This document shows, piece after piece, positions 10,812 through 28,012 of a stretch of DNA of 32,000 nt. The stretch covers positions 411,941 to 443,940 of the forward strand of contig CABIZV010000004.1 of assembly GCA_902363335.1 (NCBI GenBank), written 5' to 3'. The stretch's first letter is position 1. Every line of letters starts with the position of its first letter. Origin of the DNA: Enterobacteriaceae bacterium. GTDB taxonomy: Bacteria; Pseudomonadota; Gammaproteobacteria; Enterobacterales; Enterobacteriaceae. The position numbers were made by a program, and so were the translations under genes. The notes under the pieces were generated by a model. The model had not been told where the DNA came from. It saw nothing but the letters and a program-made list of their open reading frames with translations, and made no database searches.

Positions 10812-10836
10812 AAAAAAAGACCGGCTAATGCCGGTC
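10812..10836 (-). terminator. Rho-independent terminator after alpha
   Basis: The minus strand reads GACCGGC-AUUA-GCCGGUC followed by UUUUUUU, 9 bp after the alpha stop. Confidence 0.8.
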
Positions 10837-10844
10837 AGGATAGG

Positions 10845-13184
10845 TTATGGCGCTGTGGTTTCATCACATCGGGGCAGCCAGTCGGCGTTGCTTTCATCCC
10901 TGAGCGTGAGATTCGTCTGCATTCCCTGATTCGTTCGCCGCTTGCCATAATTCAGACCGTACTCTTTCAGCATCGATGACAGTCCTTTGCCGAACATGGT
11001 GAGGCTCAGCGTATTCTTGTAGCCGTGCGCCTCCATATAGACCAGATAGGCGTGGTACAGGTACAGGCGTGGCTGTCGCGGGATTATATTCGCGTTTCCC
11101 ATATACATACCGTCAGGCTCGGGCAGCGCCTCCAGATAGCCACAAAAATCGAATGTCGGGTCAGCATCACGCTTGATACTGAGCGCCTCGTCAGAGTTCT
11201 GCTGGGACTGGAGCAACGCGCGCGCCGTCATCGGGTCGCTGAATTTCTGCATAAGCTGGCGCACAATGACCGCCAGCTCACGGGCAATTTTATCTTTCAG
11301 CTTCGGATCACGTTCTTCCGGGGCTATCTGTTCCGGGAAGTGCATAATCACCCGGCGACGTGACACGCCGCCGCTGCGGTCAGTGAAGCGCATCGGGTTA
11401 TTGTTCACGGCCAGAATAACCGCCGGGATATGCGTTGAATACGCATCGCGGTATTTCGGGTCAACGGATACGGCATCGCCGCCGGTGATGGCCTTTAACC
11501 CCGCACCGTCGCCGCTCCATTTCTCCTGGTCAGGCAGACGTATCAGCGAGAAGCCAATCAGCGCCGCGCGTTCGCGGGGGGATTCCAGCGTTTCAATGGT
11601 CGCTGACGTGGCGTTATCCTCTCCGGCCAGCATGGTGGCAATTTCAGCCAGAATACTTTTCCCGCTGCCGCCGGGGCCGGTCACTTCAAGGAAGAGCTGC
11701 CAGTCATAACGGTTAGCCAGCACCATAAACAGCGCTGCGAGAATCACATCACGTTTATCCGCGCGTGAACCGGCGGCGCGGTTGAGCCAGCGCCAGAAGT
11801 TCGGCGCGTGGGTTTCCAGTGCTTCTCCCTCGACCGGCGGGGTAAAATCCACATCACACAGTGTACGCAGCCAGTGCGCTTTACTGTGAGGACTGAATAC
11901 GCCGGTGCTGGTATCGAGTACACCGTTTCGGAAACCTATCAGGCGGCGCGCCGGGGCGTCCTGCTGGGGAATAATCAGTTTCAGGGTATCCACCACCGAG
12001 GCAATTTTCCCCGACGAGAACGGCGCCCGCAGACGCTGGAACAGCCCGGCCACATCACGCGCAAAATCCGACGGCGGGATGATTTTCCATATCCCGGCTT
12101 CATAGCGTGACAGGAGCTGGCCGTTCGCATCCACCGCCAGCGCCTCGCCGTAATGCTCATGTACCCGCATCGCCTTTTCACTGGTGCTCATGGCGGTGAA
12201 TTCGGCCTCGCTCATGGTACTGAACGGGCTCTCTCCCGGTGGCCGGATAGCGTCATAAATCGCTTTACGCGTGGCCTCTTCACCTTTTTGCATAAACGCA
12301 TCATTCCAGTCACCGAACACCGGCGGCAGGGCGACAATGCCCTCACTGGCTTCTGCGGCCGCTGCGGCTTTTGTCTGACCGTCGCCGCTGAGGTCGCGGT
12401 CGGCAGCGAGCACAATCTGACACGCCGGGTGCTTTTGCCGGGCAAGGCTCGCCAGAGAAAGAAGGTTCACGGACGACAGCGCCACCATGACCGTTTCACC
12501 CGTCAGGTGATGCACGGTGAGTGCGGTCGCATAGCCCTCTGCTATCCACAGGCGTTTTCCGGCCTGTTTTTTCCCTTCGATGATATGACATGCTCCTTTC
12601 ACCTGACCGCCCTTCAGAGTGCGCTTGAGACCGTCAGCATTGATAAACTGAAGATTAACCAGCGCACCGGTATCGTCATAAAGCGGGACAACCACATCAC
12701 CGGCGCGGTAGGTCACGCTGCCGGTTTTATGTGTGGCCGTCAATGTCAGGCATTCCAACGCGGGAAAACCCTTGCGGGTCAGGTAGGCGTTGCCGGTCGT
12801 TGGTCGACTTTTCTCCATTAGTTTTGCGGCCAGCGCGGCCGCCGCTTTGCGGTCGGCTTCCGTTCCGGCCTCGGTGGCCGCAATCACCTCCGGGGCAACC
12901 GGCGACAGATTGCCGGTGACGGTGTTCACCTTTCCGGCAGCCTCTGAGGCCGACACGCCGAACACCTTTTCAACCAGTTTCAGCCCATCACCCGCGCCGC
13001 ACTGGTTACAGAACCACGTCCCGCGCCCCTCCTTGTCATCAAAGCGGAAACGGTCAGAGCCGCCGCATACCGGACAGGCCTGATGGCGGTTTTTAATGAC
13101 CTTCACACCCAGCGCCGGGAGAATGCGCGGCCAGTGGCCGCATGCCTGTTTTACGGTTTCCGTTACGTTCATATTCATGATCAT
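10845..13184 (-). CDS. alpha: P4 alpha-type primase-helicase replication protein
   Basis: 779 aa. It has an N-terminal zinc finger (CPVCGGSDRFRFDDKEGRGTWFCNQCG), a TOPRIM-like region and a helicase Walker A (VTGPGGSGKS). Its size is essentially that of P4 alpha. Confidence 0.92.
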   Translation of the reverse strand: MIMNMNVTETVKQACGHWPRILPALGVKVIKNRHQACPVCGGSDRFRFDDKEGRGTWFCNQCGAGDGLKLVEKVFGVSASEAAGKVNTVTGNLSPVAPEVIAATEAGTEADRKAAAALAAKLMEKSRPTTGNAYLTRKGFPALECLTLTATHKTGSVTYRAGDVVVPLYDDTGALVNLQFINADGLKRTLKGGQVKGACHIIEGKKQAGKRLWIAEGYATALTVHHLTGETVMVALSSVNLLSLASLARQKHPACQIVLAADRDLSGDGQTKAAAAAEASEGIVALPPVFGDWNDAFMQKGEEATRKAIYDAIRPPGESPFSTMSEAEFTAMSTSEKAMRVHEHYGEALAVDANGQLLSRYEAGIWKIIPPSDFARDVAGLFQRLRAPFSSGKIASVVDTLKLIIPQQDAPARRLIGFRNGVLDTSTGVFSPHSKAHWLRTLCDVDFTPPVEGEALETHAPNFWRWLNRAAGSRADKRDVILAALFMVLANRYDWQLFLEVTGPGGSGKSILAEIATMLAGEDNATSATIETLESPRERAALIGFSLIRLPDQEKWSGDGAGLKAITGGDAVSVDPKYRDAYSTHIPAVILAVNNNPMRFTDRSGGVSRRRVIMHFPEQIAPEERDPKLKDKIARELAVIVRQLMQKFSDPMTARALLQSQQNSDEALSIKRDADPTFDFCGYLEALPEPDGMYMGNANIIPRQPRLYLYHAYLVYMEAHGYKNTLSLTMFGKGLSSMLKEYGLNYGKRRTNQGMQTNLTLRDESNADWLPRCDETTAP

Positions 13185-13190
13185 TCTCCC

Positions 13191-13511
13191 TCAGTGTATT
13201 ACCGGTGATTTAATGTGACGGGCGCAAAGTTCATCCAGTACGACGAGGCCGAGAAAAGACAGTGATGGCGCGGCTTTCAGCGGGCTGGCTTCCATTAAAT
13301 CTTCCAGTAAGGCACAGGCAATCGTGCGGCCTTTATCCTCGCCATGCTGGCGCAGGTAAAAACCCTCCAGCTCGGCGGCAATAGCCCCCTCCAGCGCATC
13401 GAGAGTGAGGTGTGGGTAACGGTGCTGACGTTCACATAAAGCCAGCCATGCACAGGCCACGGCACGACGATAAAGCGCAGCGCGTAAGACGAGCGGTAAT
13501 GGCTGTTTCAT
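13191..13511 (-). CDS. P4 orf106-like small protein
   Basis: 106 aa, immediately upstream of alpha. Size and position match P4 orf106. It overlaps the preceding ORF by 4 nt. Confidence 0.6.
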
Positions 13512-13768
13512 ACGTTGCCCTCCCCGTTCAGCCAGCGTTGATTACAGCGTTCGACCACGCCGTCGAGCTGGGCGGTCATAAGATAAATCACGGAGGTAAG
13601 CTGTAACTGTTGCGCCGGATCACGACGCAATGATGTGCAGTCCTGCACCTGTACCAGCTCGCCGACAAACTGGCCGACGTTACGCAAATGTTCAAGGCAT
13701 TCGAGGTCAGCCTGACTGATGGCCGACATCCATTTATTCTGTGGTTGTTCAGTGATATTTAAATGCAT
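13508..13768 (-). CDS. Hypothetical small protein of the P4-like left operon
   Basis: 86 aa counted from the ATG at 13768, which is preceded by AGGAGA. The track ORF extends to 13813. Confidence 0.5.
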
Positions 13769-13839
13769 GATTTCGTCTCCTGAAGACGTGCGTATCCCTG
13801 TGCAGATACGCACATTTAATTTTCGTTATCGTTTTTTAA

Positions 13840-14289
13840 TTACAGATAATGGCGATAACTGTTATCCGGTTTTATTTCCGGTTCAGTCCGGAGAATATCC
13901 CACCATTTCCGCATTACCGGTGCTGACTGTCTGACGGGGATAATATCCTGCGGATAATGATTAATATTTTTATCCCGTCGTTTCTGTAATTCAGGGTCGG
14001 CAGCAATATCTTTCAGAACGATGTGACGATGTTCAGGGTTGCGCTTAAATATATCCGGGCTTTCGCAGGAAAAATCCCGTAAAAACCGGGCAAGCGGTAT
14101 TTCGACAATCCGGCTATCGGAAATAATACGAATGAGGATAGTGAATGTCCGGCGATATGGGTTCCAGACCAGCGTCGGACAGAGGTACGGCATTTCCCAC
14201 GGAATACCGTCGGCCAGAATGCCCACCACGCGCACATCAGGGAAACCGGCTGAGCAGAACAGTTCGCCCGGTTGAGGGAAATCAAACAT
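13840..14289 (-). CDS. P4 orf151-like protein
   Basis: 149 aa counted from the ATG at 14289, with GGAGG 6 nt upstream. It overlaps the upstream ORF by 8 nt. Position and size match P4 orf151. Confidence 0.6.
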   Translation of the reverse strand: MFDFPQPGELFCSAGFPDVRVVGILADGIPWEMPYLCPTLVWNPYRRTFTILIRIISDSRIVEIPLARFLRDFSCESPDIFKRNPEHRHIVLKDIAADPELQKRRDKNINHYPQDIIPVRQSAPVMRKWWDILRTEPEIKPDNSYRHYL

Positions 14290-14569
14290 GCCCCACCTCC
14301 TGCGTAGCGAGAAAATCACGGCACAGGCCTTTCGCTTTCAGTTCCTCCAGTACGTGGCTGATATCTTCATGCACATAACTCAGGATCTGCGGGGTATAAA
14401 GCTGGCTGAGTCCGTTTATTTCGTGGTGTCTTAAGTCATTGCCAAAAAAATGCAGGGTCTCACAGGCACGATTGAGTTTATGAAACGATTCGAGACTCAG
14501 GTGCTCACTGACAGCGTTAAGGTCATCACGGCGCGCTGAGACGGTCTGAACGGCATGTTGATTATGCAT
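14282..14569 (-). CDS. Epsilon-like (helper-derepression) protein candidate
   Basis: 95 aa counted from the ATG at 14569, with GGAGG 6 nt upstream. Size and position are the same as P4 epsilon. The assignment rests on synteny only. Confidence 0.45.
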
Positions 14570-15161
14570 GGCATACCTCCACAACCGGCAGACGGGCGGC
14601 AAAGGAAAGGACGTATTCACGAACCAGAGAACGGCGGGCGGTGTGTTCATCACCGGCTACGGTGCGCAGCATGCAGATACGGGGCTTACGGTCAGCACGG
14701 CGAATAGCGGCAAACACAAAGACAAATTCAGGGTGAGACGGGGTGAGGATCGTAGCCATAAGGCAACCTCCGATGGATAGCTGATAAATGCTATCGCCGG
14801 AGTTCTCACGCTCAGTGGCGATAGCCCAGACGGGGGTGAGAATACCGGCTCCATCGAGTACCGGCCAGCCCGAGGGCTGCCCCGCCTGAGCTACCATTGA
14901 CATGGCTGTGTGATATGCGATTACGGACAGGAGACACTGGGTCATACCTGCACGACTATCTGCACACCACACCATTATCTGGCGCGCTGTGGCGTTGATT
15001 GCGACACAAAAAAAGACGCATGGCGCGTCTGGTATCGCCGATGGATTGCTCGGGTTCTCACGCCCGGCTGCCGATTTTGCGGCAACGACAAAACTGTACC
15101 AGGAAACATACAACAGATGCAAGCCAGAAAAAGGGGCTGTTTGATAGCGGCTCATATTCAT
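14562..15161 (-). CDS. P4 orf199-like protein with Ash-like and Icd-like (cell division inhibitor) segments
   Basis: 199 aa. The segment [13 protein letters not shown] resembles Ash-family proteins. The segment [45 protein letters not shown] resembles Icd-like proteins annotated in P4-like elements. It has an ATGA overlap with the upstream gene. Confidence 0.65.
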
Positions 15162-15424
15162 GCATCACACTTCCTGTTGCGATGAGCAACACGTTCCATC
15201 ATCCATGCCGTGATTTCAGACTGGAGCCAGGCAACATTTTTACCACCCAGTGAGACCTGAACAGGAAAAGCATCACGGGCGATTAAATCGTAGAGCGTGG
15301 AGCGGGACAGACCGCACTGATGAATGACTTCGGGAAGGCGTAAAAAACGTTCCTGAACCGGCGCTGAAACCGCCATCAGGTGTGTACCAGTGGGGGAAGA
15401 TGGTGCTGATGAAACCGTGTGCAT
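15158..15424 (-). CDS. AlpA/Vis-family DNA-binding protein (P4 Vis-like regulator/excisionase)
   Basis: 88 aa. It carries the [49 protein letters not shown] motif typical of the AlpA/MerR-like HTH. The ATG at 15424 has GAGGT upstream. Confidence 0.85.
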
Positions 15425-15526
15425 AACGCTACCTCATTAATATCCGCAGAGATCCGAACGTATCCGTCCGGCATCAGGTAGCTCTCTATTTTGTGAATAT
15501 TTTTACTTAATGCAACAGGGCCAAAT

Positions 15527-15544
15527 TGTACAAAGCACAAGACA
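15527..15544. promoter_or_regulatory. TGT-N12-ACA dyad: candidate Delta/Ogr activator site for a leftward late promoter
   Basis: The sequence is tgt-acaaagcacaag-aca. It lies about 100 bp upstream of the vis-like gene. Confidence 0.45.
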
Positions 15545-15702
15545 ACGGGTGACGTTTTTTTACACAAGACCATTTAAAGGCGCAGGAAGGAGTTAGAAGC
15601 CACTGGAGATTTTAAAAGTGAAATGCAAATTGCTTTAATCTCTATAACAGAATTAATTAATAGGATAGAGCGCATAAAATTTACATTTATGACGTTCAGA
15701 CC

Positions 15703-15806
15703 GGTGAACAGTAGTGAACAGTTGGTGAACACTTCCCTTTCAACTGTTCACCCTTTAATTTGCTGTATTACTTATCTTTTTTCTTTTGGTGAACAGTAGT
15801 GAATAG
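15703..15806. repeat. ori-like iteron cluster (GGTGAACA/TGTTCACC repeats)
   Basis: Six copies, one degenerate: 15703, 15714, 15724, 15745 (inverted), 15788, 15799. The motif is the same as in the cluster at 10704-10794. The two clusters are about 4.9 kb apart, similar to the P4 ori/crr pair. Confidence 0.75.
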
Positions 15807-15882
15807 TTATTAGTAAAAAAACAAACAGAGAGAGGGTTTTCCAGCGACCTTTCTCTGGCAAGCCGGGTTTTTAAGTCCTGTT

Positions 15883-15900
15883 TGTGCCAGGACTGCTACA
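15883..15900 (+). promoter_or_regulatory. TGT-N12-ACA dyad: candidate Delta/Ogr-dependent Psid-like late promoter element
   Basis: The sequence is tgt-gccaggactgct-aca. Its centre is about 83 bp upstream of the sid ATG. That fits a -55 activator site with a short leader. Confidence 0.55.
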
Positions 15901-15974
15901 ACCGCAATGAATCGAGTTGTTGTCTGAGGGGCGGCAGAATGGCGTCAGGTTGAAAACACACAGAGGGCCCGACG

Positions 15975-16778
15975 ATGAAAGCAGACGTACTTACTTCAGT
16001 AATGAAAACCATTGGCAGCACACAGAATGAGACAATCCGCACGGCCATTGATATCGCACTGGATACGCTTAACGAGAAAGCGAACCAGAGCGCAGAGGCC
16101 GCAATGAATAACGCTCTTGACGCGTTCAGTCAGGCCAAATCCGCACACACGGGAAATATGCTGAAACTGAATGATATTGAGGCCGCCATTACCCGCAGCG
16201 AGAAAGAACGCCAGAACGCGCTGAATGAGAGTGCCGAAGCGGAGCAGAACTGGCGAGCCCGCTTTCGCGAACTGCGCGGCATGATGACCCCGGAACTGAA
16301 AGCGGAACATGGTCAGCGAGTGGCCGGTCGTGAGCTGGCTGAGGAGTTCACCGCCCTGATTGATGAGCTCAATGATGATAAAGCACGTACCATGCTGGCC
16401 GCCTGTACGTCAGGAAAAGAATACGTCAGCGCTCATTCAGATGTGTTCTCTGCCTATGCCCGGAATGAGTGGGCGGTGGTAATGAAAGACATTCCCCCTG
16501 CACTGGTACGCGCATTTGCTTTACGTCTGCGTGAGCTTGAGATTAAGGGGGAAGAACACCCTCACACTATTCTGATTCAGGAGCTGGGCGAGAATGTACT
16601 GACACAGAGCCAGTATTACGCATTCAACATGGAAAATGAGCCGGTGATTTCACAGATTGGCCTTCATCGCCCGGCACTCACCGGCGTAGACATGAAGCTC
16701 TTTAAAAGTCCTGCCCTCAGAATGGCGCGAGCTAAAGCGCTGGCACAGAAGAAAAAAGCGCAGGAGGTGAAGTCATGA
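15975..16778 (+). CDS. sid: Sid-like capsid size determination (external scaffold) protein
   Basis: 267 aa, helical and rich in charged residues. It is the first gene of the sid-delta-psu operon and overlaps delta via ATGA. Confidence 0.7.
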   Translation: MKADVLTSVMKTIGSTQNETIRTAIDIALDTLNEKANQSAEAAMNNALDAFSQAKSAHTGNMLKLNDIEAAITRSEKERQNALNESAEAEQNWRARFRELRGMMTPELKAEHGQRVAGRELAEEFTALIDELNDDKARTMLAACTSGKEYVSAHSDVFSAYARNEWAVVMKDIPPALVRAFALRLRELEIKGEEHPHTILIQELGENVLTQSQYYAFNMENEPVISQIGLHRPALTGVDMKLFKSPALRMARAKALAQKKKAQEVKS

Positions 16779-17017
16779 TGCGCTGTCCGTACTGCAAACA
16801 GGCTGCCCATGTTCGCACCAGTCGTTACCTGTCGGATAACGTCAAACAGAGTTATCTCCAGTGTGTGAATGTTTTCTGCTCCGCGACGTTTCGTACCATT
16901 GAGTCTATCGACGAGGTGATACGGCCACCGGCGGAGGAAAAGCCAGAACCGGCGCAGACCGCGCCAGTGACACCGCCACGAATTCTGGATAGCGCTCGCT
17001 CATCGTTGCGCCACTGA
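16775..17017 (+). CDS. delta: Ogr/Delta-family zinc-finger late transcription activator
   Basis: 80 aa. MMRCPYCKQAAHVRTSRYLSDNVKQSYLQCVNVFCSATF matches the Ogr CxxC...CxxxxC pattern (Ogr: CPLCQHAAHARTSRY...QCQNVNCSATF). Confidence 0.9.
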   Translation: MMRCPYCKQAAHVRTSRYLSDNVKQSYLQCVNVFCSATFRTIESIDEVIRPPAEEKPEPAQTAPVTPPRILDSARSSLRH

Positions 17018-17032
17018 TTCAGGAGAAAAGAA

Positions 17033-17608
17033 ATGATACGAGCACCACTGGAGCAGGCCTTTGAAACCTGTCAGAAGAATAAATCGGACTGGATGAGCAG
17101 CAAGTCAGCACTGGCACGGGCTGAAATGACGCTGAAAGAACATGAGCTCACCAGTACCCATTATGAGCCTGACGCTGTACAGGCGCTGCGTGATGATATT
17201 GACCTGAAAAAATGGGCAGTAAACCAGTCTGCCGGTCGGTATATCCGGTCACATGAGACTGTGCAGCGTATCAGTATGCGTCGTCAGCTCCACGTCTTTA
17301 TGCAGGTCAGTGGCGACGCGCTGGCCGCAGCGCTGGCACCGGAATTAATGCACCTCCGGGAGCTACCTGAAATCGTCAGGGAACGGGCTCTCGACCGGGC
17401 GGCCGCCAGCATTCGCGAAGCCCTATCGGTTCATCTGGCCAGCGGAAGAGATATTCATTATGTGCAGGATGACCGGGATATTCTGACCACTATCGGATTC
17501 CGGCCTGACAGAGCATCCAGAGAGGACAGCCGGGCAAAATATACGCCTGAGCAGTGTAAGATTTTCATGTGCCGACAGGCCACTCAGAAACGCAAAAAAT
17601 CCGCATAA
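17033..17608 (+). CDS. psu: Psu-like polarity suppression / capsid decoration protein
   Basis: 191 aa. It contains AFETCQKNK, KKWAVNQSAGRYIRSHE and LAAALAPELM, which match my recollection of P4 Psu. It is the last gene of the operon, before cos. Confidence 0.85.
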   Translation: MIRAPLEQAFETCQKNKSDWMSSKSALARAEMTLKEHELTSTHYEPDAVQALRDDIDLKKWAVNQSAGRYIRSHETVQRISMRRQLHVFMQVSGDALAAALAPELMHLRELPEIVRERALDRAAASIREALSVHLASGRDIHYVQDDRDILTTIGFRPDRASREDSRAKYTPEQCKIFMCRQATQKRKKSA

Positions 17609-17772
17609 AACGCCCCGAAAATACCCGTCTTTTTAAGAAAAATAGCGATGCATGCCTATGCTGCATGGTTTTGCATACAAAACCCTGAATTTTCCACACC
17701 CCGCCGCGCCAGCACTGGCGTGGCCTGAGCCCCTTCATCCACCTGCATTAAAAGTGCCCCACGAAGCGGGCA

Positions 17773-17791
17773 GGCGTGGCGGGGAGAGCAT
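17773..17791. other. cos cohesive-end site (P2/P4 type, variant)
   Basis: ggcgtggcggggagagcat matches the P2/P4 19-nt cohesive end GGCGAGGCGGGGAAAGCAC at 16 of 19 positions by my count. It lies between psu and the cargo slot, as in P4. Confidence 0.7.
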
Positions 17792-17982
17792 TGCGCGCCA
17801 TGTTTAATGGCGGGATAAATATCTTGAGTCATCACGCGATAGTTATTTTCTGAGTTATTAGGTCATTTGTTGAACAAAGTTATTATTTAACTCTAAATAT
17901 TGGAGTAGGGATAAAAACATGGTAATCCTTAGGTAAATATAAGGTGGAAGTTATCTGTCCAGAATTTCACGGGTAAATTAAT

Positions 17983-18015
17983 AAAGACAACAAATATGTT
18001 ATACTTGTTGTCTTT
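17983..18015. terminator. Perfect 11-bp-stem hairpin just downstream of the NACHT gene stop
   Basis: The sequence is aaagacaacaa-atatgttatac-ttgttgtcttt. It begins 12 bp past the stop at 18027. It probably insulates the cargo gene from the cos/psu region. Confidence 0.55.
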
Positions 18016-18026
18016 ATTATCTCTAT

Positions 18027-19985
18027 CTAAAATCCTTCTAGTAGTTTATTAATTCCGTTACTATCATCATGACGTATCTTATCTAATTCTTCTAGTGCTT
18101 TTCGATATTTGAGTTGCGGCGTTTTATCAAAAGATAATATTCCTGAAATTAACTTTAAATCAAAGCTCTCAGTGCAATTAAAAATATTATCGAAGTTAAC
18201 ATCTATTTTTAATTCATCTGTGTTTTTGATGGCTCGACGAACTTCGCGACCTAGATTTTCATCGTCACTGTTTAATCTATTTTCGCTGTGAAAGTATTCA
18301 GGGTTTCTTGATTTTAGAATGCTAAGAATGTAAGAAATGATAGTTTCATTTCTGGCAATGACGACCCATGTATTTCCAATGTCTGCAAAGGTTGTATTAA
18401 GATAACCATCTTTAGTGTTTAGTTCTTTAAATTCTCGGAAATCGCCGTTAATTAAATTAGAAAGTGTTGCATTCTCTACCCTTTTGGAAAACATGTAAAT
18501 TAATGACCTTCCTGGGAACAGTAGTTCAGCTTTAGAAACAACATCTTTTGGATTGCAGGCTGATTTATTTTGAATGAGTCTATCATATAGGAGGACGTAA
18601 TCTTCGAGTAGTGTTCTTATTACACTTGATCTGAATGTTGAGTAATCAATATCAGCACATAATTCAAATAGGTTTTTATGTCTGATAGATTCTTCAGTTT
18701 GATAAAGCTTAGTTAGTATTCCTCTTTGTCTCTCTTTCGTATCTCTGCAAATAAACATTGCAGCGAAGTACTCCATTAATGACTTATGAGACCATCTAAT
18801 AATTGCACCTTCCTTGACAAATAATGGAACGGTCTCAATTAAATCCTTAATGAATGAGGAAGGCGAAACTCTCATGCCAGGTATTTTTGATACAATATCA
18901 TTTATAATTATTTGCAAATCATCTTTTGTAAATTCAATACGTCCACCCTCCTTAAGACACCAAAAACCTAACCTTCTTAAAATTTGGTGAAAATCGGTAG
19001 AGTCGAGTTTTGAATATTTTTCTCGGACATACCCAAGTTCTTTAGTGAGGTCGTGGGACTCAAATAAAGCATCAAAAACTTGGCTATAAAATAGTTCTTT
19101 TTTACGGGGGATTATTGGTTTGAATTTATAAGCACAAAATAATAGCGAGACATATAAAGGAGTAGATAGGAAATCATCAAAATTACGACCTTCCTCTAAA
19201 CGCAAACCTTTTATTAATTGACTCGATATATAGCCTGTGTTGTCATATCTTCTTATTAAATCATAGGCTTGATATGTATCTAAAGGTCTAATTTTAAAAC
19301 GTGAAAAACCATAAAGTTCAGATAGGAAACTGTCATGACGTGATGTGATTATTATCTTGCTGTTCGGGAAGTTATCAGCAAAGTCTCTTAATAAAGTAAC
19401 AACTGTTGATTTAATATCTTGAGGTATTTCATCAATGCCATCGAAAAGATAAATGAAAGGAATTTCTTTAATGCACTCATTAGAAACACTTTTCCCTAGG
19501 CCAAGAAAATTTTTGATTTGTTCAGATATACTATAATCTTTTATGCGGCGCAACTCTAAATAAATGGGAATGTAATTGGTTTCTTCGATGCAGTACATTG
19601 CTATCCGCTTCATTAGGGTCGACTTACCCATTCCAGCAGAATCGGTGATAAGTATATGATTGAAAGAATTAAGTAAGTCTATTTTGTTATTAATTAGACA
19701 TTCGTAGTTGGACTTTTCGTTATCATGAAATACAGAAATTGGTTCATATATTCTTTTGAGCTCGACAGGTGTATTTTGAAAAGCTAGAGTGTTAACGAGA
19801 GAGCATTGCCCACCCATTCTAGCGAGAAAGAATTCCATTCTCTCATTAAGGAATCGTGCTGCTTTTATATCATCATAGTAACCTTTTATTCGTGAGGAAA
19901 TAATTGGTACGATTTTATTTTTAATTACCTCTTTTGCCCAAGGTAACGATGCAGCTATCATTCCTTCCAATGTTACAGGTTGCAT
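18027..19985 (-). CDS. NACHT-family STAND NTPase (bacterial NLR-related protein); candidate anti-phage defence gene
   Basis: 652 aa counted from the ATG at 19985, with AGGAGA 5 nt upstream. The track ORF starts at a TTG at 20000. Motifs are Walker A ITDSAGMGKSTLMKR, Walker B IYLFDGIDEI, sensor-1-like KIIITSRH, and a NACHT C-terminal signature RWSHKSLMEYFAAMF. The gene is AT-rich and sits in the psu-int slot. Confidence 0.8.
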   Translation of the reverse strand: MQPVTLEGMIAASLPWAKEVIKNKIVPIISSRIKGYYDDIKAARFLNERMEFFLARMGGQCSLVNTLAFQNTPVELKRIYEPISVFHDNEKSNYECLINNKIDLLNSFNHILITDSAGMGKSTLMKRIAMYCIEETNYIPIYLELRRIKDYSISEQIKNFLGLGKSVSNECIKEIPFIYLFDGIDEIPQDIKSTVVTLLRDFADNFPNSKIIITSRHDSFLSELYGFSRFKIRPLDTYQAYDLIRRYDNTGYISSQLIKGLRLEEGRNFDDFLSTPLYVSLLFCAYKFKPIIPRKKELFYSQVFDALFESHDLTKELGYVREKYSKLDSTDFHQILRRLGFWCLKEGGRIEFTKDDLQIIINDIVSKIPGMRVSPSSFIKDLIETVPLFVKEGAIIRWSHKSLMEYFAAMFICRDTKERQRGILTKLYQTEESIRHKNLFELCADIDYSTFRSSVIRTLLEDYVLLYDRLIQNKSACNPKDVVSKAELLFPGRSLIYMFSKRVENATLSNLINGDFREFKELNTKDGYLNTTFADIGNTWVVIARNETIISYILSILKSRNPEYFHSENRLNSDDENLGREVRRAIKNTDELKIDVNFDNIFNCTESFDLKLISGILSFDKTPQLKYRKALEELDKIRHDDSNGINKLLEGF

Positions 19986-20004
19986 GAGATCTCCTATCAA
20001 TATT

Positions 20005-21192
20005 TCAATTGTGGACTTTAAGTCCCCACCAATTCATTAGTTCTATTCTTGCATTTAAATATGTTGAGCGATTATAAGCTTTACGAACCTCGTTGTTATC
20101 CGAATGAGCTAACGCAGCTTCTACTACGTCACTGTTGAATCCCGCCTCATTCATAGCCGTGCTTGCTATGGATCGCAATCCATGGGCAACTAGTTTCCCA
20201 CCATAACCAATGCGCTTAAGTGCGGCATTGGCAGTCTGGCTATTCATTGGTTGTTTAGGGTCATTTCTGCTAGGAAAAACATGTTCTCGATGGGCGCTGA
20301 TTGGCTTCATTACTTCCAAAATTTCTAATGCTTGGGGAGATAAAGGTACGGTGTGCTCTCGTTTAGCCTTCATCCGTTCGGCTGGAATCGTCCAGAGCTT
20401 TGCATCGAGATCGATCTCTACCCATCTAGTACCGGAGGCCTCAGAAGGGCGCACGAGGGTTAGGAGCTGCCATTCAATTAGGCAGCGAGTCGAAACTGAG
20501 AGATTCGACATCACCAAAGAACGCATGAGTTTTGGTAATTCTTCTGGTCGTAGCGTTGGCATGTTTTGCTTTTTGGGTTTTTCAAATGCCATACCAATAC
20601 CTGACGCTGGGTTGGCATCAATCAAACCGGTGTTAACCGCATAAATCATTATCTCGTTAATACGCTGCACCAGTCGGCGTACTGTCTCGAGTGCTCCACG
20701 TGCTTTGATTGGTTCAAGGGCTTCAACCAGTGTTCGGGCTTTGATTTGCTGGACAGGAATCTCACCGATGGCAGGGAATACGTCTTTTTCGAGTGAGCGC
20801 CATATATCTTTAGCGTAATCAGGGGTAACGCTTTTGCTTTTGAGCCTGAACCAGTTAGCGGCGACAGTCGAAAAAATACTGTCCAGAGCGATTTGCTGCT
20901 GTTCCTCTGCAACTTCGGCCTGAATTTGCGGGTCGATTCCGTTGGCTAATAAGGCGAGGTAATCCGCTCTTAGCCCTCGGGCATCAGCAAGCGAAAGGGC
21001 AGGGAAGGCTCCGAGCCCCATCATTGTCCGCTGCTTTGTTGCCGGACGTTGATAACGGAAACGCCAGAGCTTTTTCCCACTGGTTTTCACTATCAGGAAA
21101 AGCCCATCGCCATCATGCAGCGTTAGATCCTTCTCTAATGCTTTAGCGCGCAGAACTTCAGTGTTGGTCAGGGGGCGTGTTGTCCGTGCCAC
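20005..21192 (-). CDS. int: P4-type tyrosine integrase
   Basis: 395 aa with a GTG start. The N-terminal arm-binding domain is LTLHDGDGLFLIVKTSGKKLWRFRY. The catalytic region has TLVRPSEA (R), HGLRSIAST (HxxR) and the LAHSDNNEVRKAYNRSTY (H...Y) motif. Confidence 0.92.
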   Translation of the reverse strand: MARTTRPLTNTEVLRAKALEKDLTLHDGDGLFLIVKTSGKKLWRFRYQRPATKQRTMMGLGAFPALSLADARGLRADYLALLANGIDPQIQAEVAEEQQQIALDSIFSTVAANWFRLKSKSVTPDYAKDIWRSLEKDVFPAIGEIPVQQIKARTLVEALEPIKARGALETVRRLVQRINEIMIYAVNTGLIDANPASGIGMAFEKPKKQNMPTLRPEELPKLMRSLVMSNLSVSTRCLIEWQLLTLVRPSEASGTRWVEIDLDAKLWTIPAERMKAKREHTVPLSPQALEILEVMKPISAHREHVFPSRNDPKQPMNSQTANAALKRIGYGGKLVAHGLRSIASTAMNEAGFNSDVVEAALAHSDNNEVRKAYNRSTYLNARIELMNWWGLKVHN

Positions 21193-21210
21193 TGTGGCCG
21201 CTCCTTCGTG

Positions 21211-21266
21211 AATTGGTATACGTTTTTAGGTCTACATCTTACCGTATACCTAAACGTATACCAATT
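21211..21266. repeat. Inverted pair of putative integrase arm-type sites
   Basis: aattggtatacgtttttaggt (21211-21231) is the reverse complement of acctaaacgtataccaatt (21248-21266), with a 2-nt insertion. It lies between the int start and the att repeat. Confidence 0.6.
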
Positions 21267-21317
21267 ATCACTGGATTCAGGCGGATCATCTCGGATGATC
21301 ATGGACAAATAACAGAT

Positions 21318-21411
21318 ACAAAAAAGCCCGCAAGGCTTACGCTTAGCGGGCTTTCAGGACTTCCTCGGACGACTCTGGTAATCGTTGAGGGAGAATTTTG
21401 GTGGGCTGGGG
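21318..21411. repeat. Right copy of the 94-bp imperfect direct repeat (att); identical core at 21390-21411
   Basis: See 9553-9646. It contains the homologous hairpin and the GC-stem/GNRA-loop/U-run terminator (minus sense). Confidence 0.85.
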
Positions 21412-21694: not shown

Positions 21695-22540
21695 TTGAAC
21701 AACTGGTCACCAGAGCACACAAAAGACATCAAGAGTTGGTTTAAGATTGATACATATCGCAAATTTGAAGACCTCTCATTGCTCCAGTTTTACCATGAGA
21801 TATGGGCTCGTAACTTGTTCTTTAAGGAGTATCGGGAAGAGTTTGAGAGCAGAACTCTTATGGGTTACTTCTCAAAAATTTTCAGTGGCAATCCTTTTTT
21901 AATTGAAGAAGGGCAACTGGGATACATGACTCCTGCCAATAAACTTTTTCAGCCTCCCCATTTTTTTCTAACAACTCTTGATCGCCTTGCTGAAACGAGC
22001 ATCATTGCTATGCAACGCGGAGGTTTTGTTTGGGATGGTGATGACAATTATTCAATAAACAGAGATCTTCGGGAAGAATCACTTTCAGATATTATGCCAG
22101 ATCAGTTTTCACGAACAGTCATGTTCGAGATTGATTTGGCAAGTGGCACAGACGAAGAGATTGCAGAGTCGCTTAAAGCTGCATTACCGCAGTGGCGTAA
22201 AATCAAAAGTATCGAACCAGATCCTTTAGAATCAGTTCGCTTTGGGTATGGAACTATCAAGAAACTCATCAGTTATCGTGTGATACCTATGCTGGATATC
22301 CTGGTGTGGGCAGCCGTTAAAAAAATCCGTGTCTCTGACGACAGGTTATCCAGACTGCTATATACAGACGATGACGAAGAAAGCGAAATGAGGCAGTCTA
22401 GCCAAATCAAAGATACCGACAGGCCTTTGGCTCTTAAATCCTGCACAACTGACTTTATCCGACAATTCCATTACTTCATGAACAAAAATAGCCATTTGAA
22501 GCAAATGAAAGTCTCTGATGTAATGAAACTATCTGATTAG
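21695..22540 (+). CDS. Hypothetical protein (281 aa, TTG start in the track), unknown function
   Basis: Long ORF in an AT-rich region with an acidic stretch (YTDDDEESE). I recognise no motif. Confidence 0.5.
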   Translation: MNNWSPEHTKDIKSWFKIDTYRKFEDLSLLQFYHEIWARNLFFKEYREEFESRTLMGYFSKIFSGNPFLIEEGQLGYMTPANKLFQPPHFFLTTLDRLAETSIIAMQRGGFVWDGDDNYSINRDLREESLSDIMPDQFSRTVMFEIDLASGTDEEIAESLKAALPQWRKIKSIEPDPLESVRFGYGTIKKLISYRVIPMLDILVWAAVKKIRVSDDRLSRLLYTDDDEESEMRQSSQIKDTDRPLALKSCTTDFIRQFHYFMNKNSHLKQMKVSDVMKLSD

Positions 22541-22820
22541 AATTACATTTATAACTATTTGTTTTAATTGTTAAAATTAACTAAAGGCATCATTGTGAAT
22601 GGTGCTTTTTTTTGCGATTTTTACTTTAAACCGGGCATTTTGACACTTGCTATAAAACGGGGGAATTTCAGCTACTCTCAAGTTCCCCTTTTCTGTACGG
22701 CACCAACTTCGAGAAAAACATCCTGCATAGCTACGAAGAACCTCCGCTTCAGGAGCTTCGCTCTTTTCTTTTCCCAACTGTTCGTATAGTGACTTCACCG
22801 CAACGACAAGGGATAACGAA

Positions 22821-23027
22821 ATGAAAAATCAAGCAACCCGCCTAATACGATTACCAGAAGTTCTCGAACGAACTGGCTACGGAAAAGCCTGGATATATCG
22901 TCTGATCAACGATGGTAAGTTTCCTGCTCCTGTCAAAATTGGAAGTCGTGCAGTAGCTTTCGTTGAAAGTGAGATTGATACCTGGATTCAGTCTGTTATC
23001 GAAACAAGTCGAAATAATGTTGCTTAA
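22821..23027 (+). CDS. alpA: AlpA-family phage/island transcriptional regulator or excisionase
   Basis: 68 aa. It carries the RLIRLPEVLERTGYGKAWIYRLINDGKFPAPVKIGSRAVAFVESEIDTWI canonical AlpA motif. Confidence 0.9.
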   Translation: MKNQATRLIRLPEVLERTGYGKAWIYRLINDGKFPAPVKIGSRAVAFVESEIDTWIQSVIETSRNNVA

Positions 23028-23047
23028 TTGAACTTAGGAGTGATTTT

Positions 23048-23347
23048 ATGAATATCGAAGAATTTGTAAGCGAAGAAAACCATATGTGCAATTTATGCGG
23101 AGATCTTTTTTACAAGATCTTTGACCAAGAAGTGATTTATGACTTACCTAATAACGAGTTTAATAAAGAAATCATTTACTGGCTCAGTCAGTACCTTGTA
23201 GGAAATCTGAGAGAACCTTTAGACTCGATCTCTGAGCTTAATGCTTGCAAACAGATATATGTTTACGAGACCTGGTTATCTCTAATTAAATGTCCTGATG
23301 AATTGAAACTCCTAGCGAAGCGGATAATTTTATATCTAATGGATTAA
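23048..23347 (+). CDS. Hypothetical protein (99 aa)
   Basis: The ORF starts 20 bp after alpA, with AGGAG upstream. No recognisable motif. Confidence 0.45.
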   Translation: MNIEEFVSEENHMCNLCGDLFYKIFDQEVIYDLPNNEFNKEIIYWLSQYLVGNLREPLDSISELNACKQIYVYETWLSLIKCPDELKLLAKRIILYLMD

Positions 23348-23641
23348 GAGCTTTTTATGAAAATGTAAAGTTTGCTGCATAATTTATCTTAAAACTTTAC
23401 AGAATAACTTACATTATTTTGGTTGCCGTTTATTAGCAAGGCAGTGAGATAGTTTTCGAAGTATTAGGTGTACATAATAATAACTAGATCTACCAGATGA
23501 TAATTTGACAGGAATAAACATATATCTCACTGTTTTAATTTAACTAAATGGCTTAATCAATTCAAATAAATTTGTAAATCTACGAAATGCTTATTATTAA
23601 TATATTGGAATTATACTTTTTGTAAAGTTTAGGAGGAAAAT

Positions 23642-24844
23642 ATGTGCAGTATTTGTGTGGATTCTTTTATGTTCGAAAATGGTGAGAGATATTGTCATGT
23701 TGTAAATAAAGATACTGGTGAGCCATTGTATTATCCAAACTTGTATATAACAACACAAGTCAGGAATCGGTCAGAGTCTATATCAACAATGAAGGTTATC
23801 GCTGGGAGCATTTCATTGTTATATCGATTCTTTATGAGAAAAAATATCAATATTGATGAAAGAATTCAGAAAAGGATATTTCTGGCTCCTCATGAAATTG
23901 AAGATTTGATCGAATTCACTTCATTCAATTTTCGAGATGGCGAGAATGATAATTTTAGAAGTTCAAATGTCAAAAAACCAACTAAGTACTTTCGGATAAC
24001 AACCATAGCTAACTATCTGGAATGGCTGTGCAAAATACATCTTTCTCATACAGGACAGAAGGATACTCTCAAATATATTTTAGATTTCATAAACAACATA
24101 AAACGAAAGAAACCGAGAAATAATGATAAATATAATATGGATATAGAAAAAAGTTTAAATAATGAACAATTGGATTCTTTGTTTAGCATTCTTGCACCGG
24201 GTAGCAAATTAAATCCTTTTTCAGAAAAAGTGCAAAAAAGAAACAATCTAATATTCCTGCTATTACACTGCTTTGGCCTGAGAGCAGGTGAACTTTTGAA
24301 TCTGCGAATTGGTGATATAGATTTTGCAGAATCGACAATTGCAATAAGAAGAAGAGCAAATGATAAAACAGATCCGCGAGTGTATCAGCCTTTAGTTAAA
24401 ACTTGTGAGAGGAAATTAATTGCTGATAAAAAGCTCATGTTTGAAATTTCAGATTATATTCTGAATGATCGAAGAAACATAAAAAATTCTAACAAACATG
24501 ATTTCCTGTTTATTACTTATAAGGAAGGAAAAACTCAAGGGCAACCTATTTCATTTTCTTCATATCACAAAGTGGTGAGTGTTGTTCGTCAATCCTCCTC
24601 ACTTCTAGGGGGATTGACAGGTCACAAACTCAGACATACATGGAATTATGAGTTTTCGAAAGCAATAGACAAGAATCAGGACATATCCGATGAAAAAGAG
24701 CAACAAATCCGTTCTTATCTCATGGGATGGCGACCGGGTTCAGAAACTTCAATGATTTATAATCGCAGGCATATTTATGAGCTATCGAAAAAAACTGCAC
24801 TTGAACAACAAGAGCAACTATTCAAAGGAGAATTTGATGAATAA
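23642..24844 (+). CDS. Tyrosine recombinase 1 of the trio (GinA/TnpA-like)
   Basis: 400 aa. Catalytic motifs are GLRAGELLNLR (R), GHKLRHTWNYEF (HxxR) and the LMGWRPGSETSMIYNRRH (W...Y) motif. Confidence 0.85.
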   Translation: MCSICVDSFMFENGERYCHVVNKDTGEPLYYPNLYITTQVRNRSESISTMKVIAGSISLLYRFFMRKNINIDERIQKRIFLAPHEIEDLIEFTSFNFRDGENDNFRSSNVKKPTKYFRITTIANYLEWLCKIHLSHTGQKDTLKYILDFINNIKRKKPRNNDKYNMDIEKSLNNEQLDSLFSILAPGSKLNPFSEKVQKRNNLIFLLLHCFGLRAGELLNLRIGDIDFAESTIAIRRRANDKTDPRVYQPLVKTCERKLIADKKLMFEISDYILNDRRNIKNSNKHDFLFITYKEGKTQGQPISFSSYHKVVSVVRQSSSLLGGLTGHKLRHTWNYEFSKAIDKNQDISDEKEQQIRSYLMGWRPGSETSMIYNRRHIYELSKKTALEQQEQLFKGEFDE

Positions 24845-26141
24845 TTTAATTAAAAATAAATCTGATAAAATGTCTTTGCATGAACATAAAATCGTCAGTT
24901 CGATTGAAAATAACGGAATCAATCTTACAAACTTAATATATGCTATGAACGAAAATTTGGTTTGTGGGTTTGTATATACAGTACAATATTATTTTAATAG
25001 CAACAGCTATTTGTATGTGAAAAATATTGTTAGAAATATGGAGAGTCTTATCCGTAAACTATCTCCTACTCATATTGATGATAAGGTTCTAATTGAATAT
25101 CAAAATAAGAAATTATCAAAAGCCTCAGCATCATTTCGCGTTTTACGACCATTTTTGATTAAATGGTTTGAGTTAGGATATCCGGGAATAGATGAAAGTG
25201 CGGTAGAACTGTTAAAGCATTTGGACCTAAAAATAAAAAAATCTGGTCAGTCTGTGCTTCAAGATGATCCAACAGAGGGACCATTAAATAAAGAAGAACA
25301 TACTTCTTTGATTAAGGCTATGAATCATGCATATAGAAAAGGTGAACTGTCACTGCCACATTATGCAATATCACTATTGATCAGTCTTACAGGTAGAAGA
25401 CCTCAGCAGTTAGTTATGTTGAAATATAAAGACCTTCTTCAAAAGAACTTAGATAATGGCAAAGTAGAATATGTAATTTCAGTGCCACGAGTAAAACAAC
25501 GGGGTAAAGAACTACGATATCGAGAACTTGCAATAATATCAGAGGTTGCATCAATTGTTCAATTGCAAGCTAATCAATCAGTGAAACTTGTTGAGCAAGC
25601 TCTTGGAAAAACTCTTGATGATTATTCTAAACGAGAAGTTCCTATTTTCTTAAATGAGGAAAAACTCTCAGATTTATCCATAACAGGTTCAATTCTTCTG
25701 GAATATAATAAATTATATGCGAAGCCTACAATTGCTAATGTAGCATTGAAAAGTATTGTTAATAATGGGAATGTAATATCCAACCGTACCGGTTCGATAC
25801 TAAATATTACTCCTCGTAGGCTTCGTTATACAATAGCAACTATGCTGGCTAAGAATGGGCATAATGTTAATACTATAGCTGAATTATTGGATCATTCATC
25901 TACTTCAAGTGCGGGGATTTATATTAAAAATCATGCTGACAGTGTTGAAAGGATTGATTCCGCTGTTTCAGAACAATTGTCATTTGTCGCTGATATTTTT
26001 ATGAACGGAATCAAATCGAAAAAGAGTAGTCATTTCAAATTTTTTTCTTCAAGTAGATGCCAGAGTCAGAATTCAGGATTTCCTTGCAATCAATGTATGT
26101 TTTTTATTCCGATTGATCGCAGTGAGGTGAATCAACTATGA
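24837..26141 (+). CDS. Tyrosine recombinase 2 of the trio (GinB-like)
   Basis: 434 aa counted from the ATG at 24837, with AAGGAG upstream. It overlaps the previous gene by 8 nt. Motifs are LTGRRPQQL (R), PRRLRYTIATMLAKNG and LLDHSSTSSAGIYIKN (H...Y). Confidence 0.8.
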   Translation: MNNLIKNKSDKMSLHEHKIVSSIENNGINLTNLIYAMNENLVCGFVYTVQYYFNSNSYLYVKNIVRNMESLIRKLSPTHIDDKVLIEYQNKKLSKASASFRVLRPFLIKWFELGYPGIDESAVELLKHLDLKIKKSGQSVLQDDPTEGPLNKEEHTSLIKAMNHAYRKGELSLPHYAISLLISLTGRRPQQLVMLKYKDLLQKNLDNGKVEYVISVPRVKQRGKELRYRELAIISEVASIVQLQANQSVKLVEQALGKTLDDYSKREVPIFLNEEKLSDLSITGSILLEYNKLYAKPTIANVALKSIVNNGNVISNRTGSILNITPRRLRYTIATMLAKNGHNVNTIAELLDHSSTSSAGIYIKNHADSVERIDSAVSEQLSFVADIFMNGIKSKKSSHFKFFSSSRCQSQNSGFPCNQCMFFIPIDRSEVNQL

Positions 26142-28012
26142 ATAATATTATTTTGTTCAAATCAAAAAAACATATTCTTGTAGAAGAAAATTATAATGAG
26201 TTCATAAAATTTTGTCGCTATCAACTGTCCGGACTAACCCAAACTCAGGATTGGGAGCAGTATGCCTGGAAAGGATATGTCACATTTAGAAAAATAGGGA
26301 TTGGAAATAAAATCTTTGATTCCATTGATGCAATGCACGAAGATTATATCAATTTTGCGAAAGCATATATCAGATATCAACACACATTGAAACCATTAAA
26401 AAATTATGGGGTTATTATGATGGCCTTGCGATGTCTCGAACAGGCCCTTTTGCAGGTTCAGAACACTGGTCTCATTTATAATGTTACAGCCGTTGTTTTC
26501 GATGAGGCAATGCAGATCGGGAGTAAATATTTTGAAGGTAACGTTTTGGCTAAATGTGGAATACAGCTTGAAAAAATATCAAAGTTTCTGTGTGAACATA
26601 ATCTTGTGAAGTCAGGATATATCTCATGGAAAAACCATGTAAAACAGAAAGTCAAAAACAATTATCTTCCTGAGATTGAGGATTATCACCGAAGCGATAA
26701 GTTACCAGATGAAGAAGCATTGCTCGCTATTGCTGATATTTTTTCTCAAAATGATGAGTTACTGAGTCCAAGGGATAAGTTCACCAGTTCAGTATTTGCA
26801 CTTCTACTTTGTTGTCCGAGCAGAATTTCTGAAATTTTAGCCTTACCTGCTGATTGTGAGATTACACAAATAGATGGCAAGGGTATCGAAAGATATGGTT
26901 TGAGATTTTATTCGGTAAAAGGGTATGGCCCTAATATCAAATGGATTCCACGGGTTATGATACCAGTTGCAAAGAAAGCGATTAGAAGATTACTTTCCTT
27001 ATCACAAAATGCAAGAGCACTTGCTCACTGGTGCGAAAAGTACCCGGATAAATTTTACCGACATGAGCTTTGCCCAACAGTTGATGAAAAAGCTAAATTG
27101 ACCGTTGTACAAGTTTGCCATGCACTGGGGTATAATTTATTTGATCATAAATCATGTGTTTTAAAAATTAAAAGAACGAGTTTGGATGGTGGGAAAAGTT
27201 TCTTAAACCACAATGATTACAACTATTCATTGAGTAATTTGTGGGAAATTATTAGTTCTAATTTTAGCAGAGATTTTCCATGGTATGATAAAGAAAAATC
27301 CATAAAATTTAGTAATGCTTTATGCTTGCTCAATACTGATCAATTTTCTTTATCAAGAATGACTTCAATTTTCACATTTTACAAACCTACTAAAAGTTTC
27401 TTTTTCAGTGACATACAAAGAAAAAAAAGCTATGAGATGAATTATAAAAATATATTTTCCCGATATGGATATTATGATGATGAAGGTAAACCACTACTTA
27501 TTCGCTCACACCAGCCACGGCACCTTTTAAACACAATAGCCCATTATGGTGAAATGTCTGAACTGGATATAGCTAAATGGTCTGGTCGTATCAATGCGAA
27601 TCAGAACAGAGTTTATAACCATGTGTCGGAAGAAAATATGTTAGATAAAATCAAAGCTATTAAATTGAATAGGAGTAATTACTGTCAAAGGGAGTCAATA
27701 CCCACAAATGAATTGACAATTGATTTTGATAACCTTAATCAAGGTGCAATACACTTAACTGAATTTGGTTACTGTGTACATAACTATTTAATCAAGCCTT
27801 GTGCAAAAATTAATCATCTTATTGAATGTGATAATGAAACACCGGACATTAACTCAGTAGATAGAATTAGACTGCAATCTGTCCGAGAGAAAGTAATGCA
27901 ATTAAAGAGAATAACTCAGATCGCTTATGAAAATGGTGATTATGGTGCAGACAAATGGTTGCAACACCACAAAAAAAATTTGGAAAGAATTAATAAACTA
28001 TTGAATAATTGA
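26138..28012 (+). CDS. Tyrosine recombinase 3 of the trio (GinC / Tn554 TnpB-like, large)
   Basis: 624 aa with an ATGA overlap with the previous gene. Motifs are CCPSRISEILAL (R), RSHQPRHLLNTIA (HxxR) and IAKWSGRINANQNRVYNH (W...Y). Confidence 0.8.
   Translation: MNNIILFKSKKHILVEENYNEFIKFCRYQLSGLTQTQDWEQYAWKGYVTFRKIGIGNKIFDSIDAMHEDYINFAKAYIRYQHTLKPLKNYGVIMMALRCLEQALLQVQNTGLIYNVTAVVFDEAMQIGSKYFEGNVLAKCGIQLEKISKFLCEHNLVKSGYISWKNHVKQKVKNNYLPEIEDYHRSDKLPDEEALLAIADIFSQNDELLSPRDKFTSSVFALLLCCPSRISEILALPADCEITQIDGKGIERYGLRFYSVKGYGPNIKWIPRVMIPVAKKAIRRLLSLSQNARALAHWCEKYPDKFYRHELCPTVDEKAKLTVVQVCHALGYNLFDHKSCVLKIKRTSLDGGKSFLNHNDYNYSLSNLWEIISSNFSRDFPWYDKEKSIKFSNALCLLNTDQFSLSRMTSIFTFYKPTKSFFFSDIQRKKSYEMNYKNIFSRYGYYDDEGKPLLIRSHQPRHLLNTIAHYGEMSELDIAKWSGRINANQNRVYNHVSEENMLDKIKAIKLNRSNYCQRESIPTNELTIDFDNLNQGAIHLTEFGYCVHNYLIKPCAKINHLIECDNETPDINSVDRIRLQSVREKVMQLKRITQIAYENGDYGADKWLQHHKKNLERINKLLNN

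Follow-up and report, generated by a model that had tools for sequence, protein, structure and literature searches.

A bNACHT04-like NACHT gene as the sole cargo of the psu-int hotspot in a P4-like satellite of an Enterobacteriaceae bacterium

Background

Among the bacterial NLR-like proteins built around a NACHT module, the nearest to the gene described here are bNACHT04 of Klebsiella pneumoniae UCICRE 8 (WP_004899960.1; Kibby et al. 2023) and bNACHT22 of Escherichia coli ECOR36 (WP_001183326.1), both of 652 amino acids (aa) and both placed by Kibby et al. (Table S1) in clade 14 (bNACHT01-like), where they were then annotated as 'NACHT' only. bNACHT04 was cloned from directly downstream of a P4-type integrase gene (int), with an insert that began inside int, and for one member of its cluster the gene is flanked by int and psu; the bNACHT22 clone included int, and its locus was scored as a two-gene operon (Kibby et al.). 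In the P4 hotspot listing of Rousset et al. (Table S1A), 'NACHT WP_001183326' is the sole psu-int gene in many E. coli loci, and the annotation of E. coli R1 reads psu - NACHT (WP_001183326.1) - int - ssrA. We provide here the analysis of a gene of this kind, located at 18027-19985 on the minus strand of a 32,000-nucleotide stretch of DNA from an Enterobacteriaceae bacterium (assembly GCA_902363335.1, contig CABIZV010000004.1, positions 411,941 to 443,940), the whole of which is referred to as the window, where it occupies the psu-int slot of a P4-like satellite.

A further reference is bNACHT11 of K. pneumoniae (WP_114260439.1; cryo-electron microscopy structure 9ORF), which has the same tripartite plan in 639 aa and, unlike the window protein, has proven triggers (gp6, gp9 and gp57 of phage T2) and proven defence. 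Its SNaCT binds phage proteins through beta-augmentation, and the protein forms a heptamer that does not assemble without the tail (residues 633-639), docked into the adjacent protomer. Plasmolytic death depends on the N-terminal MDPIT extension, and protection is lost upon the D2A and P3A substitutions. NLRC4 and NAIP were reported as the structures most similar to it. The founders of clade 14, bNACHT01 and bNACHT12, resemble the window protein in that each system is one gene whose product joins a short N-terminus to a NACHT module and to a SNaCT that diversifies rapidly, bNACHT12 being 24% identical to it over the NACHT region. They differ by another SNaCT family, by N-termini starting with MDIIQ and MDLVF, respectively, and by their defence against T4, T5 and T6. 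The TIR-NLR of the P4 hotspot (Rousset et al. 2022) is likewise a single STAND/NLR-like protein of the psu-int slot, with a TIR effector and a TPR repeat sensor, whereas the window protein has neither an enzymatic effector nor repeats.

Results and discussion

Relationship to bNACHT04 and bNACHT22

The window gene is almost certainly an orthologue or allele of bNACHT04 residing in the hotspot of a P4-like satellite. Its product has the length of bNACHT04 and is 84% identical to it end to end (N-terminus 84%, NACHT 89%, SNaCT 75%, tail 82%), with the same MQPVT start and the same Pfam NACHT and SNaCT5 domains; the two differ in the host genus, the chromosomal flank being Kluyvera-type here, and in a quarter of the SNaCT residues. 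bNACHT22 is 65% identical and shares the architecture, the psu - NACHT - int layout and the NACHT gene as sole cargo, whereas its SNaCT is only 39% identical and its satellite is integrated at ssrA, the window holding neither tmRNA nor tRNA. The best overall explanation, and in our view a fairly probable one, is that the gene encodes a bNACHT04-like, NLR-like abortive-infection sensor built on the plan of bNACHT11.

Table S2 of Kibby et al. prints the first ~400 residues of the tested proteins, and the matching to bNACHT names was limited to that part, over which the cluster representatives P0002 and P0021 differ by 1 residue from bNACHT04 and by 1 residue from bNACHT22, respectively. The P0002 cluster comprises 412 sequences (84% identical to the window protein) and the P0021 cluster 458 (65% identical), and Pfam now calls NACHT and SNaCT5 on both representatives. 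By proxy, through the labels of these two relatives and not a tree, the window protein would belong to clade 14. The database search returned a large family, the closest listed member of which is a 94%-identical protein. The original prediction, made from the sequence alone, held that both terminal domains could be new; what was found is largely a close relative (84% and 65% identical) of two named clade 14 members, with named terminal domains. Novelty is unsupported: the protein has been named and cloned before, its configuration has been tabulated before, and a Pfam family exists for its C-terminal part. The locus mainly confirms published work, namely that NLR-like proteins encoded by one gene travel with P4-like satellites as cargo of the psu-int slot, and its residual value is that of a clean, intact and strongly constrained example (ratio of nonsynonymous to synonymous substitution rates, dN/dS, of 0.03) of the SNaCT5 subgroup.

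The gene, its signals and the parts of its product are the following:

18027..19985, minus strand: bNACHT04-like gene, 652 aa plus stop, ATG start, N-terminus MQPVT (open reading frame list, homologue starts)
19991..19995, minus strand: ribosome-binding site AGGAG, 5 nucleotides (nt) upstream of the ATG (sequence read)
17979..18019, minus strand: A/U-rich hairpin just past the stop codon, likely terminator (RNA fold)
19800..19985, minus strand: N-terminal extension, residues 1-62, MQPVT then helices 6-32 and 40-61 (AlphaFold2, AF2), putative death effector
18651..19694, minus strand: NACHT NTPase module, residues ~98-445 (Pfam PF05729, motifs, Foldseek, hhalign)
18069..18650, minus strand: SNaCT5 domain, residues 446-639, alpha/beta, hypervariable, putative sensor (Pfam PF22711)
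18030..18068, minus strand: C-terminal tail DDSNGINKLLEGF, residues 640-652, conserved across 74 homologues

The open reading frame 18027-20000 of the minus strand opens with a TTG at 20000, which has no ribosome-binding site; the start shared by the homologues is the ATG at 19985, which gives 652 aa, and the close homologues are all of 650-655 aa and all start with MQP[VI][TS]. A purine-rich GGA/AGGA is retained at the position of the ribosome-binding site in five related loci. Compared with the 94%-identical copy, the gene has a dN/dS of 0.03 at a dS of 0.88, similar in every domain; it is under strong purifying selection, as this ratio implies strong constraint. Downstream, the RNA fold of 17960-18035 (minus strand) reaches -26.1 kcal/mol (z = -7.3), 0 of 200 shuffles being equally stable, and the hairpin at 17979-18019 is likely the terminator of the NACHT gene.

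Domain architecture and predicted fold

The assignment to the NACHT/STAND NTPases put forward in the original prediction is confirmed by the Pfam match to PF05729 (33.6 bits for a cut-off of 26.7, residues 113-247), by the four motifs and by the NLR-like fold retrieved with Foldseek. These motifs are the Walker A GMGKST (residues 118-123), the Walker B LFDGIDE (180-186), the sensor-1 IIITSR (211-216, with TSR at 214-216 and R216 as its Arg) and, in the winged-helix region, HKSLMEYFAA (400-409, with HKS at 400-402 and H400 as the conserved His). In the alignment of 74 homologues, G118, G120, K121, T123, D182, G183, D185, E186, S215 and R216 are invariant and H400 is retained in at least 90% of the sequences. 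The AF2 model, computed from a 74-sequence alignment (predicted local distance difference test, pLDDT, 85; predicted template modelling score, pTM, 0.70), consists of N-terminal helices, the NACHT module and an alpha/beta C-terminal domain. The best matches of the full model in the PDB are NLRC4 (E 3.6e-12), NAIP, NOD2 and NLRP3, the predicted succession of nucleotide-binding, helical and winged-helix domains being like that of animal NLRs. No Pfam domain is called on the residues before ~100, and the N-terminal extension, which starts with MQPVT here and with M(L)ETIT in the wider family, has no hydrophobic segment of transmembrane grade.

The ~190 residues that follow the NACHT module had been regarded as a possibly new domain; they belong to an assigned family, because Pfam calls SNaCT5 there (PF22711, 33.8 bits for a cut-off of 27, residues 446-639). 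The structural comparison of this domain suggested along with the original prediction was successful as to the model, which is confident for the domain alone (pLDDT 89, pTM 0.83), but not as to the fold, Foldseek giving no significant match in the PDB (set without 9ORF) or among viral structures (best E ~0.1, template modelling score <0.22). When the protein or the family profile was searched by sequence against the same PDB set, weak matches to animal NLRs came up and no bNACHT structure, and a scan of the protein against NCBIfam gave nothing meaningful. Column entropy amounts to 2.2-2.95 bits over residues 451-625 versus 0.5-1.7 in the NACHT module, and the mean identity to 73 homologues is 24.5% for the SNaCT versus 57.6% for the NACHT; phmmer with the SNaCT5 domain alone against 1.84 billion representatives returned 10 matches at E <= 0.001. 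This hypervariability of the sensor domain reproduces the hallmark of clade 14, in which the SNaCT diversifies faster than the NACHT. The tail (DxSNGIxxLLxGF) is conserved despite the hypervariable SNaCT immediately before it, residues D640, S642, N643, G644 and L648 being kept in at least 90% of the 74 homologues.

As a side observation, a beta-hairpin and helix of the SNaCT5 domain (residues ~508-554, window ~18324-18464) have weak sequence matches to two beta-grasp-type domains, one being the PB1-like units repeated in P0302, a plant-like protein of 1273 aa (six stretches), and the other ThiS in NCBIfam (E 0.095). The match of these residues to a beta-grasp is unsupported by Foldseek.

The psu-int slot and the junction with int

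The elements that frame the gene are the following:

17801..20014, no strand: variable hotspot segment, homology to the element of E. coli UTME-7 breaking on either side
17033..17608, plus strand: psu, left border gene of the hotspot (Pfam Psu, E 1e-68)
17773..17791, plus strand: cos-like site GGCGTGGCGGGGAGAGCAT, 3 mismatches to the P2/P4 cos, 1 found versus 0.02 expected
20005..21192, minus strand: P4-type tyrosine integrase (Pfam Arm-DNA-bind_3, Phage_int_M, Phage_integrase), on the same strand as the NACHT gene and directly upstream of it
20071..20099, minus strand: candidate sigma-70-like promoter ATAACA-17-TATAAT inside the 3' end of int, 10/12 matches in a consensus scan only

The limits of the slot are set at 17801-20014 because this is the interval over which homology to a P4-like element of E. 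coli UTME-7 is lost. The two blocks that flank it, 10681-17800 and 20015-21371, are 84-87% identical to that element, the int of which is 95% identical to the one described here; where the NACHT gene sits in the window, UTME-7 has a HEPN protein and a hypothetical protein. As had been predicted, the NACHT gene is the sole cargo of the slot: no other real open reading frame exists in 17801-20014 and, apart from one 20-aa chance frame, none of at least 20 aa lies wholly inside 17801-18026. The AT-rich, foreign composition noticed at the outset is also borne out, with 33.2% G + C in the NACHT gene versus 48.5% in int, 53.8% in psu and 58.6% in alpha. The surrounding P4-like satellite is complete, with alpha, C4 RNA, a sid-like gene, delta, psu, cos, int and the attachment (att) repeats.

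The stop codon of int (TGA, 20005-20007) precedes the ATG of the NACHT gene by 19 nt, which agrees with the 4-19 bp and the own ribosome-binding site, found here as AGGAG, of the original prediction. The read-through from int that it had envisaged is plausible from the sequence, because of this 19-nt gap and of the lack of a terminator between the two genes, and the bNACHT22 locus provides a two-gene operon of the same kind. The candidate promoter at 20071-20099 is indistinguishable from chance; its conservation is uninformative because the -10 box lies in conserved int coding sequence. If the int promoter drives the gene, the bNACHT04 insert, having begun inside int, would have lacked it. Given how closely the gene is coupled to int, earlier negative tests may reflect limits of expression or of the phage panel.

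Relatives and their alleles

The int-NACHT-psu layout is also present in Enterobacteriaceae UBA7338, in a metagenome or sequencing-run assembly (L006/L007), in a locus carrying the bNACHT04-cluster representative P0002 (L008) and in Pectobacterium; the scan of genome contigs returned 4 loci. In complete E. coli genomes, megablast of the gene gave no match. The 'distant' mode of blastn retrieved 42 E. coli genomes, 71% identical in the stretch encoding the N-terminus and the NACHT module; the SNaCT part retains no nucleotide similarity to the E. coli copies.

In L008, int is spread over three frames (frameshifted) and alpha is fragmented (positions 2888-3979 and 7948-9957). This copy sits in a decayed satellite with an extra 353-aa gene, unlike the intact element with a single cargo described here. 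The K. pneumoniae alleles of 586 aa (P0004-P0016) have an in-frame deletion of 66 aa, which joins FADDF to LSTPLYV and drops the IIITSR sensor-1 region, and they occur on dozens of contigs (e.g. 46 and 35). The deletion allele is probably a loss-of-function allele circulating in K. pneumoniae, because the sensor-1 region is removed and because of the number of contigs on which it is seen. Split or truncated copies are also found within the 90% cluster, in Scandinavium and Citrobacter.

Proposed mode of action and alternatives

With bNACHT11, BLASTP aligns the window protein from residue 1 to ~393 (24% identity, E 3e-25), and hhalign aligns it with the bNACHT11 family over residues 36-463 only (probability 99.96%, E 9e-39); homology thus runs from the second N-terminal helix through the NACHT module to the first SNaCT residues, at 22-24% identity. 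In addition, both proteins have an M-x-P-[IV]-T N-terminus (MDPIT in bNACHT11, MQPVT here) and a conserved extreme C-terminal tail. The resemblance of the N-terminus to the MDPIT effector extension is at the motif level only; the architecture is shared and the terminal domains form a distinct sequence family.

By analogy with bNACHT01 and bNACHT11, we infer every step from sensing to killing, as well as defence itself, and an abortive-infection sensor is a somewhat probable mechanism. The sensing and killing steps draw on analogy of architecture, because neither terminal domain, taken alone, shows detectable homology to its bNACHT11 counterpart. In the lysogen, little of the protein would be made, probably from a transcript shared with int and by means of the gene's own AGGAG site, and it would rest as an inactive monomer. 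During infection, the hypervariable SNaCT5 would bind one or more phage proteins, upon which the NACHT module would bind ATP and assemble a ring, the DxSNGIxxLLxGF tail possibly helping to lock neighbouring protomers. The clustered N-terminal MQPVT helical extensions would then damage the envelope and kill the cell before the phage cycle is completed, an abortive infection that would protect the clone and the satellite.

Several observations weigh against this reading. Compared by hhalign with the bNACHT11 family, the 70 N-terminal residues reach a probability of 4%, which is not significant, and the C-terminal sub-alignments one of 0.3%; bNACHT11 itself has no SNaCT5 match, and a distant relative of it (P0190) matches SNaCT1. 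The low SNaCT score would lower the case for the same sensor and not that for a similar way of working. The N-terminal motif has Q at position 2, where bNACHT11 has D, P3 and T5 being the same. PADLOC, to which the original prediction had looked for a defence assignment, gave with its 2023 models a weak P-loop match to Avs2 only, but no call as a defence system. In the tables of the Kibby et al. 2022 preprint, from which all phenotype statements are taken, bNACHT04 and bNACHT22 have no entry under 'Phage Defense', and an effect of bNACHT22 on T3 is explicitly not trusted. Inactivated or deleted alleles are, moreover, common among the relatives. The Rousset et al. 2021 preprint counted a 'NACHT NTPase' as validated; the words 'NACHT' and 'NTPase' are absent from the file with Tables S2A and S2B of Rousset et al. 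2022.

A more specific and tentative proposal, which we hold to be possible and on balance doubtful, is that the int-linked subgroup bearing SNaCT5 (bNACHT04, bNACHT22 and the window protein) is an active immune sensor of a trigger not represented in the classical coliphage panels. This trigger could be a protein encoded by P2-like helpers, by competing temperate phages or by phages of Klebsiella/Kluyvera. If this were true, the trigger would constitute a new sensor-ligand pair for bacterial NLR biology and would explain the two published negatives; the sensor domain is without a relative among solved structures, and the protein would be expressed as part of the satellite's integrase operon.

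The negative coliphage panels would be explained as well if the protein were functional and served the satellite's own conflicts (by sensing a P2-like helper or else a rival satellite or prophage, or by stabilising the element like an addiction module) instead of general anti-phage defence. The tight and recurrent linkage to P4-type int, with gaps of 3-24 nt between int and the NACHT gene across genera, the strong purifying selection despite no measured defence in the relatives, and the two related loci that adjoin P2-like prophage genes all fit such a role. We nevertheless consider it improbable, given a 75%-identical protein on an Arsenophonus plasmid without int or P4 genes, more distant family members in non-P4 contexts, and the defence of other clade 14 bNACHTs against unrelated lytic phages (Kibby et al.); an interaction with a helper is without support in this analysis. 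The absence of a trusted phenotype for bNACHT04 and bNACHT22 could also mean a silent or dispensable cargo, no longer expressed or useful in its host and heading for loss, and the widespread 586-aa alleles, the split or truncated copies and the degraded satellite of L008 point the same way for the relatives. For the window copy this is again a poor prospect: it is intact with all its catalytic residues, its low dN/dS extends across all domains, and the satellite around it is complete. Membership of Avs2/AVAST, a different STAND defence family, is very improbable. In its favour are the sole PADLOC match (Avs2, E 7e-6) and a MEPIS-like N-terminal motif also reported for Avast2, against which stand a protein of 652 aa without a repeat sensor, Pfam NACHT and SNaCT5 matches above cut-off, and nearest relatives catalogued in bNACHT clade 14. 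It was rejected, as residues 75-170 match only positions 309-402 of the 1499 of the profile, a stretch of 95 residues around the P-loop.

Other features of the satellite and the adjoining element

The remaining features of the satellite are the following:

10845-13184: alpha primase, satellite core gene
14814-14901, minus strand: C4 antisense RNA (Rfam, 70.9 bits)
15009-15086, minus strand: isrK (Rfam, 69.7 bits)
9553-9646 and 21318-21411: att-like direct repeats of 94 nt, 88% identical, bracketing ~11.8 kb

The region from alpha to epsilon has ~78% nucleotide identity to P4, and the satellite also carries a sid-like open reading frame, at the position of sid, and delta. The P4-type RNA immunity region is intact. 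No integration-target RNA was found in the window by tRNA, tmRNA and Rfam scans, and the attachment site of the satellite is suggested by the 94-nt repeats only. These repeats end in ...TGGTGGGCTGGGG, the reverse complement of which, CCCCAGCCCACCA, resembles a tRNA or tmRNA 3' end.

The satellite has another AT-rich accessory slot at 9647-10844, between the att-like repeat and the end of alpha, the homology to UTME-7 starting only at 10681. It contains a gene (9849-10508, minus strand) for a 219-aa protein with an HsdR N-terminal-like domain (PF13588), the 90% cluster of which occurs in Klebsiella, Enterobacter and E. coli, on more than 860 contigs in all. On the other side, a second AT-rich integrative element (21695-32000) abuts the int-side att repeat, with the following features:

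21695-22540: DUF6387
22821-23027: AlpA
23642-24844 and 24777-26141: two adjacent tyrosine recombinases
26138-28012: 624-aa open reading frame without Pfam match
30245-31453: MobA/VirD2 relaxase

The element has the look of a mobilisable island that stands in tandem with the satellite.

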